From positions 1-64,000 of the IMG/VR virus record IMGVR_UViG_3300036785_000296: a stretch of 64,000 nucleotides of DNA. One strand, written 5' to 3'. Position 1 is the first letter of the stretch, and each line of letters opens with the position of its first letter. The notes under the pieces are model-generated. The model did no database searches, was not told the DNA's origin, and saw only the letters and a list, made by a program, of their open reading frames with translations. Of the stretch, positions 6,143-8,661 are shown in pieces. The DNA comes from a virus. The translations under genes and the position numbers were made by a program.

Positions 6143-6505
6143 CTAGGATAGCTCGTTTGGTTCGGTTGCAGGCTCTGGCGCCGCTCTTTCGACCCTCTGG
6201 CGCAGCCGCTCGGCGCGCGCCGCGCGCTTGGGCCCCACCGGCGCGCTCGCCGGAAGCGGCAGGCCCATCTGCTCGGCCACGTCGTTCGGGATCGAGAACG
6301 TCACCAGCGTGTTCAGCACCGGCGCAGGCTCGGGCGGCACCGGCGTCGTCGCCGGGTTCAGCTTCGGCAGCTTGTAGACCGGCCCGGCCGCATCGAGCGA
6401 GACGATCCAGAAGAACGGCTCGTCCGCCACGTAGAAGAGGTTCCAGCTCGAGATCGGGACGTGCGCCTCGCTGGCGTCGTTCGGGATGTAGCCGACCTCA
6501 GACAT
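6143..6505 (-). CDS. Hypothetical protein
   Basis: ORF with coding-like composition. Confidence 0.6.
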   Translation of the reverse strand: MSEVGYIPNDASEAHVPISSWNLFYVADEPFFWIVSLDAAGPVYKLPKLNPATTPVPPEPAPVLNTLVTFSIPNDVAEQMGLPLPASAPVGPKRAARAERLRQRVERAAPEPATEPNELS

Positions 6506-6701
6506 CCGGCGTCAGCTCTTCTTCGGAGAACGGCACGAACACCACCGCCATCATCAGCGGCTCGTGCGACGTGCCGGACTTGGTGCGGGTCGAGCGCCAC
6601 AGGTGGCCGCCGTCGACGGCGACGCGCTCCAGCAAGTCGGTGTCGGTAGACCACATCTCCTCCCAGCCCTCATCGAGATGCTGCGTGTCAGCGGTGCTCA
6701 T
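6498..6701 (-). CDS. Hypothetical protein
   Basis: MSTADTQH..., AAGGGAGA RBS. Confidence 0.6.
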   Translation of the reverse strand: MSTADTQHLDEGWEEMWSTDTDLLERVAVDGGHLWRSTRTKSGTSHEPLMMAVVFVPFSEEELTPDV

Positions 6702-6739
6702 GATCCGGTCTCCCTTCGTTCGACAGACGTTCGCCCAAA

Positions 6740-6769
6740 GTGGGGTATCATACCCACTCTTGTGGATAA
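6740..6769 (-). promoter_or_regulatory. Putative promoter with perfect DnaA box
   Basis: TTATCCACA (6761-6769, minus) 8 nt upstream of TATGAT -10 lying in near-palindrome GTGGGGTATCATACCCAC. Confidence 0.45.
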
Positions 6770-6879
6770 CTCCCCTCAGAACCACCTCCGGCGGATCGGG
6801 ACGAGCCTGCCCAGGCGCGAGACCACCGCTTGCAGCTCGATGGCGACCGGCGTCTTCGGCCCCTGCGGCTGGCCGTACT

Positions 6880-7326
6880 TCACGCCGTCAGGGCCTTCAC
6901 CGCCCACATCACCGCGCGCTCCAGATCGGTGACCGCCAGCGCCCTGTAGCGGTCCTCGGACGGCAGGCCCTCCTTCCGCCTGACGATCTCCACCTGATCG
7001 AACAGCGCCTCAAGCTCGGTCGCCTTCGTCTTGATCGCGTCGTGCAGATTGCGCTCGTCCACGCTCAGCGCCCGGTAGCGCGGACGGAAGCGGCTCGTCG
7101 GCAGCTTCGGATCGGCGCTCTGGCGCGCGTCGGGCTCGCCCTCGTAGACGTGCGTCGCCCGCTCGGGCGGGCCGGGATAGAGCTTGTCGTCCGACACCAT
7201 CGCCTCCTTCTCGTGAACCAGCCGGGTGATCACGCTGCGCGCCTGCTCCGGTGTCAAGCTGTCCAGGCGCTCTAGCATGCCATCGACGTGGACGTGGGTG
7301 ATGGGCAGATCGTCAGGCAGGCTCAT
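6880..7326 (-). CDS. Acb2/Tad1-like anti-defence nucleotide sponge with N-terminal extension
   Basis: RYRALSVDE...AIK and RYRALAVTDLERAVMWAVKAL match the Acb2 helical hairpin; alternative start ATG 7200. Confidence 0.65.
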   Translation of the reverse strand: MSLPDDLPITHVHVDGMLERLDSLTPEQARSVITRLVHEKEAMVSDDKLYPGPPERATHVYEGEPDARQSADPKLPTSRFRPRYRALSVDERNLHDAIKTKATELEALFDQVEIVRRKEGLPSEDRYRALAVTDLERAVMWAVKALTA

Positions 7327-7810
7327 GCGGCTGTGTCGCGTCAGCCTCGGGCGGTTGGTAACCGCGCAGCTTCTTCTCCAGATCGAGACGGGTTGGGCAG
7401 TCGGGGTTCGCCTTGAACTCCGCTGTGATCTGCCGGTCATGCTTGATCTGCCTCGCGTGGCGATCCCTCTCCATCTTCCATTCTCCTGCGCGCAGCCTGA
7501 CTGCCATTTCGTGGTCTCGGGGCGTCATTCGCCCCTCGCGGATGCGGATGTTCCTGCCTACGACGTGCAGGCGATCCTCCTCGAACATCTCAAGCTGCGT
7601 GCCCACCCCGCCTTGCAACTGCCTGCGGTCGTCGGCATCGACGCCGTCCGAAGCCTGCTGCGTGATGCCGACCACGAGCGTGCTGTCGGCTCTCATCTCC
7701 TCGGCGAGGCGCTCTTTGAGGATATTGTTGTCCGTCCGTCCGGTGGGGTTTTCCGCCTCAAGCTGGCGACGCAGCCTCTGGATGACGGCGGTCAGGCGCC
7801 GGTTCTTCAT
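7313..7810 (-). CDS. Hypothetical protein
   Basis: ATGA-coupled to ParB-like gene. Confidence 0.7.
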   Translation of the reverse strand: MKNRRLTAVIQRLRRQLEAENPTGRTDNNILKERLAEEMRADSTLVVGITQQASDGVDADDRRQLQGGVGTQLEMFEEDRLHVVGRNIRIREGRMTPRDHEMAVRLRAGEWKMERDRHARQIKHDRQITAEFKANPDCPTRLDLEKKLRGYQPPEADATQPHEPA

Positions 7811-8646
7811 CTCTCGTCCTCCAGCAAGTCAGCCAGCTTGGCCAGATACGACGACACCTTGCGGCAGGCCTCGACACTCAGCCCCTCGACCGGCTCGTCG
7901 CCGATGATGGCAAGGGTTGCCTTCGGATCGTCATCGATCTGGCCATACGCCAGGATCGTCTCCAGGCAAGTCGAAGCGCTCCGCGCCCGCCGCTCACGCT
8001 CTTCCTCGACGCGCTTCGCTTCCGCGAGCCGTCCCTGGTATGCGCCCTCGGCTTCCAGCAGCGACATCGTCTGTTCGCGCACCTGGGTGGCCAGGTCGAA
8101 CGCGCCTTCTGTCAGCCGCTGCAACCGACCTTCGACGCTCTCGTTCTGGTCGCGGACTTTCACAGCCTCGGCGTAGGCGTCGTTGAGCGTCCGCGTGCCT
8201 GCGAAGACGGCGGGGGCGACGGTCGGGGTCTCCTTGAGGACGAGGCGGGCCTTCGACAGTGTGACCTTGTTGACGCCCTCTTGGTTGTTTCCTGAGGAAA
8301 CATCAGCGCGCTTCAGCTTCTCCGGCTCCGGGTAGACCATCGCGACGGACATCGCGCACTGACCCCTGGTCAAGTGCCGCCTTCGGATATTGTCCGACAG
8401 GATGCGCCGGAGCACGGCAGCTTCGTCGCCCTCGAAGGTCTCGAACCTGGGCTCGACCTCGGCGCGACGGCAGGCCTCCAGGCGATTGCGGCCATCGATC
8501 AGCAGCCCGTCGCGGTCGATCAGCAGCGGATGGTTGAGCCCGTTCTCGGCGATGTCGGCCGCCAGTTCGTCCAGCGCCTCGTCGTCCAGCATCGGGAAGA
8601 GGGCGGCGAAGGGATGGACGCCGTTGATCTGCGAGCCGTCAGCCAT
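7807..8646 (-). CDS. ParB/Srx N-terminal domain protein
   Basis: HPFAALFPML...DIAENGL...LIDGRNRLEAC...NIRRRHLT. Confidence 0.85.
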   Translation of the reverse strand: MADGSQINGVHPFAALFPMLDDEALDELAADIAENGLNHPLLIDRDGLLIDGRNRLEACRRAEVEPRFETFEGDEAAVLRRILSDNIRRRHLTRGQCAMSVAMVYPEPEKLKRADVSSGNNQEGVNKVTLSKARLVLKETPTVAPAVFAGTRTLNDAYAEAVKVRDQNESVEGRLQRLTEGAFDLATQVREQTMSLLEAEGAYQGRLAEAKRVEEERERRARSASTCLETILAYGQIDDDPKATLAIIGDEPVEGLSVEACRKVSSYLAKLADLLEDER

Positions 8647-8661
8647 ATCAACGTCCTTACG

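Follow-up and report, generated by a model that had tools for sequence, protein, structure and literature searches.

The open reading frame P0001, on the minus strand at positions 6880–7326 of the window (the whole stretch of 64,000 nucleotides analysed here), probably encodes an Acb2-family sponge for immune signals (probability about 0.8), in which an N-terminal module (N-module) is followed by a linker and leader and then by an Acb2-family core. It specifies 148 amino acids plus a stop codon (TGA at 6880–6882). The window covers the initial 64 kb of an IMG/VR virus record of 74,004 bp, a complete phage genome with direct terminal repeats, and has a G+C content of 68%. The record stems from a soil metagenome, and sequence-identical pieces are present in a second soil study. 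The GC1/GC2/GC3 coding pattern matches the minus-strand frame of the sponge gene from about 7330–7360 to the stop codon, with its onset near ATG 7326, and the plus-strand ORFs that overlap the gene are shadows.

The first-pass annotation had proposed an Acb2-like sponge candidate at this locus, and Pfam, profile searches of the PDB, Foldseek and four conserved ligand residues all bear this out. Residues 84–147 (6886–7077, minus strand) match the Acb2/Tad1 hairpin family PF24729 with 56.5 bits (E=3.2e-15; Pfam gathering cut-off 27), and a genome-wide domain search returned the same match at 58.1 bits. In the AF2 monomer this region forms two long antiparallel helices (residues 89–118 and 125–147) with pLDDT >97. 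For both AF2 models, the best nine Foldseek matches were all Acb2 or T4 Vs.4 (probability 0.84–1.00, 20–23% identity), after which the probability falls steeply to ≤0.47; the E-values of the Acb2 matches are only about 0.05. Re-ranking with VIA-align was discarded as evidence for Acb2, its Z of 7.3 being level with that of many unrelated hairpins. Because a plain helical hairpin is weak evidence as a fold, it is the sequence profile together with the ligand residues that carries the case for Acb2. Profiles of the clade to which the protein belongs ranked the PaMx33 Acb2 chains first in the PDB (E 0.007 and 0.02), followed by Tad1 (E 0.08–0.2, hairpin alone) and by Acb2_43 (PDB 9ptq, E 0.49), while phmmer with the single protein against the PDB returned chance matches only, so that Acb2 was found by profiles alone. 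Comparison with Acb2 and Tad1 by HMM and structure prediction, as the earlier reading had suggested, placed Acb2 first in every search, the structural part of it with a monomer model only. Judged by its sequence, the C-terminal 92 residues of P0001 belong to the Acb2/Tad1 hairpin family, within a large uncharacterised clade (clade 1), and both the Acb2 motif and the profile match are far above chance level.

Acb2 is a homohexamer with three dinucleotide and two trinucleotide pockets; it captures CBASS signals, leaving them uncleaved, and protects phages against CBASS. In PaMx33 Acb2, mutagenesis assigned the binding of cyclic dinucleotides to Y11 and K26 and that of cyclic trinucleotides to R67 and T74, the latter pair being variable among genuine Acb2 proteins; A70 and I71 supply hydrophobic contacts (PMC10312549) and P90 a base contact (PMC12393519). 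In the profile-to-PDB alignment, PaMx33 Y11, K26, R67, T74, A70 and I71 correspond to Y84, K99, R126, T133, A129 and L130 of the window protein, the codons of the four ligand positions lying on the minus strand at 7075–7077 (Y84), 7030–7032 (K99), 6949–6951 (R126) and 6928–6930 (T133). Both motifs named in the earlier reading are present: Y-R-x-L-S with a Lys 15 residues after the Tyr, as Y84-R-A-L-S88 and K99, and R...T(+7)-D, as R126-Y-R-A-L-A-V-T133-D134. Its statement that the spacing equals that of the published Acb2 was likewise correct, since Y11/K26 and R67/T74 fall into the same alignment columns.

The core (residues 57–148; 6883–7158, minus strand) is the counterpart of the 82-aa stand-alone proteins of clade 1. 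In a word-indexed search, HMMER retrieved 697 homologues at E <0.001, all with PF24729, most of which are 82 aa long and span only residues 58–148. Among 120 homologues the ligand positions are conserved nearly without exception (Y84 in 119/120, K99 in 120/120, R126 in 118/120 and T133 in 120/120), and the clade consensus reads MTHVYEGxPDARQSxDxxMPTSRFRPRYRAL...GRYxxLAxTxLExxVMWxVKxLT. Ahead of the hairpin, residues 59–84 form an Arg-rich arm (HVYEGxPDARQSxDxxxPTSRFRPRY) with invariant D66, R68, Q69, R79, F80, R81, P82 and R85, and in each of the two AF2 models a beta-bridge connects this arm with the region around the Tyr.

A tblastn search of 50,697 cultured-phage records gave zero matches to clade 1. 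The genomic copies of the clade lie mainly, not solely, in alphaproteobacterial genomes, and two of five genomes bearing such copies also encode a SMODS (CD-NTase) domain. Of the earlier description as a divergent alphaproteobacterial sponge, membership in the Acb2 family stands, and the host assignment is weakened to a clade whose copies are mostly, not solely, alphaproteobacterial, the window itself coming from a soil metagenome. The neighbour genes of the window sponge are not conserved around other clade-1 loci, TerL gave no more than distant matches when compared with 151 Caulobacteraceae genomes, and a literature search for work combining Acb2, prophage and Alphaproteobacteria returned nothing. 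Two further clade-1 sponges, P0029 and P0043 (180–181 aa, 43% identical over their full length), have another N-terminal domain of about 75–95 aa in common, which lacks a Pfam family and constitutes a second, independent fusion to clade 1. The clade-1 copy of a Bosea sp. MAG (L010:2807–3048) is open for 64 aa only and ends in ...QVKPGVTAPSA; its tblastn match continues beyond this point, and the copy is probably the result of a frameshift or an assembly error.

Because the canonical ligand residues are conserved, we argue that the protein binds CBASS di- and trinucleotides. The core would assemble as a hexamer like PaMx33 Acb2 and would sequester 3',3'-cGAMP-type dinucleotides at Y84/K99 and cA3-type trinucleotides at R126/T133; with these signals sequestered, the host effector would stay inactive and infection would proceed. 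The ligand spectrum of the clade could differ from that of PaMx33 Acb2, since its arm is longer, its loop shorter and an equivalent of P90 is missing. A stronger form of this idea, in which a sponge of Acb2 fold chiefly takes up something other than a CBASS signal (a Thoeris cADPR isomer as in Acb2_43, or another molecule) in a pocket formed by the Arg-rich arm, seems to us rather unlikely. It has precedent, in that 10 of 46 Acb2 homologues assayed were inhibitors of type I Thoeris, and that the added N-terminal strand of Acb2_43 builds the 3'cADPR pocket (PMC12393519), and it would suit the invariance of the arm, the beta-bridge in both models and the missing P90 equivalent. However, the near-invariance of Y84/K99 and R126/T133 speaks for use of the canonical pockets, and the clade profile is nearer to PaMx33 Acb2 (E 0.02) than to Acb2_43, whose weak match (E 0.49) covers helix 2 only. 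The spacing between the N-terminal T-H and the first helix is also unlike that in Acb2_43, the clade starting with T-H-V-Y 25 residues before its first helix.

What sets P0001 apart within clade 1 is its N-terminus. The extra N-terminal region of about 70 aa noted earlier holds in comparison with PaMx33 Acb2 (Y84 versus Y11), whereas in comparison with its own clade, whose 82-aa proteins have the Tyr at about residue 28, it is residues 1–56 that are added. Residues 1–37 constitute the N-module (MSLPDDLPITHVHVDGMLERLDSLTPEQARSVITRLV; 7216–7326, minus strand), which begins with MSLPDDLPITHVHVDG, overlaps predicted helices at residues 14–23 and 26–44, and is absent from nearly all clade-1 proteins. 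A search with residues 1–57 retrieved four proteins, P0244, P0129, P0130 and P0155, with N-termini 76–90% identical to the module and a module consensus of MSLPDDLPITHVHVDGxLxRLDSLTxxxARxxIxRxV. In three of the four the module starts at Met1; in P0155 eight residues precede it, after an upstream GTG. In all four it is joined in frame to a sponge core of a different PF24729 clade (clade 2).

Two of these proteins are encoded by sister phages of the window phage, L102 (the contig of P0129) and L103 (the contig of P0244), with which it has gene order in common and TerL identities of 91% and 87.5%, respectively. The module DNA of the window is 89% identical to that of both; 9 or 7 of the substitutions are synonymous and 4 are non-synonymous, giving a dN/dS of about 0.12–0.17 over 111 nt only. 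This pattern of substitutions speaks for purifying selection on the N-module. In L102 the ATG of MSLPDD is preceded by a 258-nt gap, with GGAG 5 nt upstream; ATG 7326 of the window phage is without a Shine-Dalgarno sequence. We initially read residues 1–42 as an over-called start and dropped this view after the recurrence of the module, the dN/dS values and the Shine-Dalgarno sequence in L102. On these comparisons, the N-module is evidently translated and the N-terminal extension real, and because no stop codon follows the module, a 148-aa fusion should be made; translation from ATG 7326 would yield this N-module/sponge protein.

The N-module also has stand-alone homologues: it corresponds to the C-terminal two thirds of the 87-aa protein P0123 (48% identity over 48 residues), and in L072 a gene for an N-module homologue lies 3 kb upstream of a clade-1 sponge. 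A pattern scan of viral contigs found no relative of P0123, and the N-module gave no matches in Pfam or the PDB. Residues 4–37 (7225–7326) bear a likeness to the C-terminal glycyl-radical segment of GrcA/YfiD, with 15 of 34 residues identical, including SLTPEQ and R.VI.R, and with the radical motif RVSGY appearing as HVDGM here (NCBIfam E 9.5e-4, 19 bits where the cut-off is 170; PDB 6owr, E 0.16). The likeness was lost with the family profile and was treated as chance.

A possible second start at 7200 had been suggested as well, and the comparison with relatives lends it support. The ATG exists (7200–7198, M43), is followed by a GTG (7197–7195, V44) and is preceded by a Shine-Dalgarno-like AAGGAGG at 7203–7209 that is read in frame as K40-E41-(A42), so that initiation on the minus strand at either codon would give products of 106 or 105 aa. 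These would begin with the leader, M(V)SDDKLYPGPPER(A) (residues 43–57; 7156–7200, minus strand), which is also the shared boundary at the 5' end of the cassette described below. M43 aligns with Met1 of the leader-only proteins P0002, P0005 and P0124–P0127, which come from both clades; P0002 and P0005 are the nearest clade-1 relatives and start M(T/S)DDKLYPGPPER. It further aligns with the ATG of a third relative, L101, where this is the first start past a stop codon, and with ATG ACC of a co-occurring relative in run X1, where AGGAGA precedes it. In L102 and L103, too, AAGGAG lies 6 nt before an in-frame ATG, and in all three long genes the site falls at the junction of module and core, which reads AAGGAGGcgATGGTG in the window, AAGGAGcacccgATG in L102 and AAGGAGaagctgATG in L103. 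AGGAGG is common within the genes of the window phage (51 sites, with a start codon 3–10 nt downstream in just 11), so the internal start is not established by sequence alone. Since ATG 7200 matches the start of the leader-only forms, a second, shorter isoform from this codon is nevertheless plausible.

We consider it quite improbable that the short protein from ATG 7200 or GTG 7197 is the only true product, with the 42 upstream codons an in-frame, untranslated remnant of a neighbouring gene. The strong AAGGAGG before the internal start and the lack of one before ATG 7326 would favour such an arrangement, as would the beginning of P0002 and P0005 at the leader, the prevalence of 82-aa homologues that cover residues 58–148 only, and the rarity of stop codons at 68% GC. 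But the module is fused in frame to sponge cores in five proteins whose linkers differ, four of which begin at the same MSLPDD; its differences from L102 and L103 are mostly synonymous (dN/dS 0.12–0.17), and L102 has its own Shine-Dalgarno sequence before the MSLPDD ATG. The coding signature moreover shifts into the sponge frame already at about 7330–7360, and in the absence of a stop codon translation of the module necessarily continues into the sponge. The fusion, possibly accompanied by the shorter isoform, is therefore the reading we retain.

Comparison of the window with its relatives revealed how the gene is assembled. DNA homology to L102 and L103 is kept over the module (7327–7207), is lost over linker, leader and core, and resumes at 6884, at the stop codon of the sponge. 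L101 has a different left flank and a leader identical at 27 of 29 nt; the cargo behind the leader is unrelated, its core belonging to clade 2, and homology extends from the stop codon downstream (resuming at 6882/6884). Scans of metagenomes for the leader and for the flank with the downstream 35-aa ORF found nothing, and scans of viral sequences found L101 only. In run X1, from the source soil sample, a second contig of similar depth (31 versus 36) matches the window as far as 6882 and again from 7163, with other sequence in between, and upstream of its leader it reads AGGAGAcgaacgATGACC. Because similarity is lost over the core and is back exactly at the stop codon, the alignments identify the sponge core as a swapped cassette, whose left boundary is the leader and whose right boundary the start of the conserved 35-aa ORF. 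Run X1 contains a second related phage that diverges from the window in several patches (6348–6509, 6779–6882) and carries different cargo in the sponge slot.

The alternative core, clade 2, is characterised by the signature STFEYLKPT...DKTYALRKLREVAMWANVAITR and comprises 270 homologues, most of them 71–73 aa long. The profile comparison of clade 1 with clade 2 is weak (probability 34%) and aligns R126 and T133 with a Pro and an Arg of clade 2; on this weak alignment, the swap may alter the trinucleotide pocket. At L104:692–1036, a clade-2 sponge is extended N-terminally and in frame by yet another sequence (MSAPDDFMHYFNRAGELTKEVEHLRKEVERLKRERL..., of coiled-coil look), which stops at the usual core Met (MTLHDSTF).

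On the minus strand, the sponge ORF belongs to a run of genes in the order 181-aa ORF, large terminase, ParB-like gene, 165-aa gene, sponge ORF and many small ORFs. The 165-aa gene (7313–7810, minus strand) has no assigned function and overlaps ATG 7326 with its last 14 nt, an arrangement that could couple the two translationally; in L103 the 14-nt overlap upstream of the sponge ATG and the ...HEPA* ending of the upstream gene are identical. We compared the 165-aa gene with the lost N-terminal part of a P0123-like protein and rejected this origin. Downstream, a 35-aa ORF (VKYGQPQGPKTPVAIELQAVVSRLGRLVPIRRRWF; 6776–6883, minus strand) with a basic C-terminus begins at a GTG that overlaps the sponge TGA as GTGA, and this overlap could couple translation of the sponge and the 35-aa ORF. 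The ORF is kept in L101 (overlap ATGA) and L102, regardless of the clade of the preceding sponge. Between the sponge stop and the 35-aa ORF, L102 has an additional small ORF with a hydrophobic stretch (..KWLLLWIVISAASGALWAWARWKRHDDPDDPDLEGLS; L102:6376–6488), which likewise terminates in a GTGA overlap. The stretch from terL to the sponge varies among the sister phages (window 7328–8661, L102:4441–5999, L103:1938–3361): it holds the ParB-like and 165-aa genes in the window, a 39%-identical ParB-like gene and a 170-aa gene with the ...HEPA* end in L103, and an unrelated 209-aa gene and a long gap in L102. Within 6400–8000 no sigma-70-like promoter was found, and the sole terminator-like site lies on the strand opposite to the sponge gene. 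The 64-kb window contains no tRNA.

Taken as a whole, the window gene would be a mosaic of three parts: the N-module as in L102 and L103, the initiation region and leader as in L101, P0002 and P0005, and a clade-1 core. In the simplest history, recombination placed the initiation region, leader and clade-1 core of a donor gene in frame after the module. On this view the embedded AAGGAGG-ATG would be the site at which the donor gene natively initiated, and it may still give rise to a 106-aa sponge that lacks the module. Far more tentative, and on balance doubtful, is the extended proposal that the N-module is a portable domain giving Acb2 hexamers a second property (a host target, assembly control or localisation), situated ahead of a recombination joint, made of the initiation region and the 'DDKLYPGPPER' leader, at which sister phages exchange cores of different ligand spectra. 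In this proposal long and short isoforms would co-assemble, and the 35-aa protein would be a fixed partner of the resident sponge.

That the protein is a Tad1-type Thoeris sponge, with an N-terminal domain followed by the hairpin, is highly improbable: PF24729 spans both families, 148 aa and the order of N-domain and hairpin are Tad1-like and the clade profile matches Tad1 chains at E 0.08–0.2, but these matches are limited to the hairpin, every search ranked Acb2 first, the prediction for the N-terminal part is helical instead of beta-sheet, this part resembles no PDB chain, and nearly all clade members lack the N-module.

Acb2 sponges are a well-studied phage route past CBASS and, for some homologues, past Thoeris, with 4,204 non-redundant homologues from IMG/VR (PMC12393519), and Pfam already recognises P0001. 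The novelty of the locus consequently lies in an architectural variant and an informative natural swap within a known and very widespread family; it is not a new kind of system. Clade 1, with about 700 proteins, combines an invariant Arg-rich arm with all four ligand residues and has no match in the cultured-phage collection. The exchange of two Acb2 clades between fixed boundaries in sister phages makes a clean natural case, and a swap of this type is to be expected where different hosts rely on different signals. The N-module, although rare, occurs on both clades and as a stand-alone protein, and the start embedded behind it could give two isoforms.

Among known systems, the window protein is closest to the Acb2 of the Pseudomonas phages PaMx33 and JBD67 (PDB 8H2J, 8H2X, 8IXZ), which has the same hairpin, is the best PDB match by profile and by Foldseek, and has its Y11, K26, R67, T74, A70 and I71 equivalents at the same spacing. 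Identity is about 23%, and the cores are similar in size, with 82–92 aa in clade 1 compared with 94 aa in PaMx33 Acb2. Clade 1 has an invariant, Arg-rich arm before the Tyr that exceeds its PaMx33 counterpart by 17 residues (27 versus 10), its inter-helix loop is shorter by 14 residues, and P90 has no equivalent because the chain ends two residues past the last aligned column. The window protein has, in addition, a 56-residue N-terminus composed of N-module and leader.

T4 Vs.4, an Acb2 homologue (PDB 7UQ2), adopts the same fold (Foldseek probability 0.84–0.99; VIA Z 7.3 over residues 65–148). In Vs.4 the trinucleotide-site Arg is absent, and there is no binding of cA3 (PMC10312549). In contrast, the window protein retains both the Arg and the Thr.

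Acb2_43 (PDB 9PTQ) is a protein of 76 aa with short beta-strands at both ends, which does not inhibit CBASS and binds the Thoeris signal 3'cADPR. Its 3'cADPR-binding residues in the terminal strands are T4, H5, L6, V7, K19 and K55. It thus offers a precedent for N-terminal additions that reshape the ligand pocket of the hairpin, whereas the window protein retains the canonical CBASS-ligand residues, and the N-terminal parts of the two appear unrelated.

Tad1 (PDB 7UAV, 8KBB–8KBH), finally, has a C-terminal hairpin of the same Pfam family and the layout of an N-domain followed by the hairpin in common with the window protein. No antiparallel beta-sheet of the Tad1 type is predicted for the window N-terminus, which is helical or coil, and the N-module profile retrieved no Tad1 chain from the PDB. 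In Tad1 the beta-sheet N-domain contributes to gcADPR binding, whereas the N-module of the window protein is short and helical and is also found as a small stand-alone protein.
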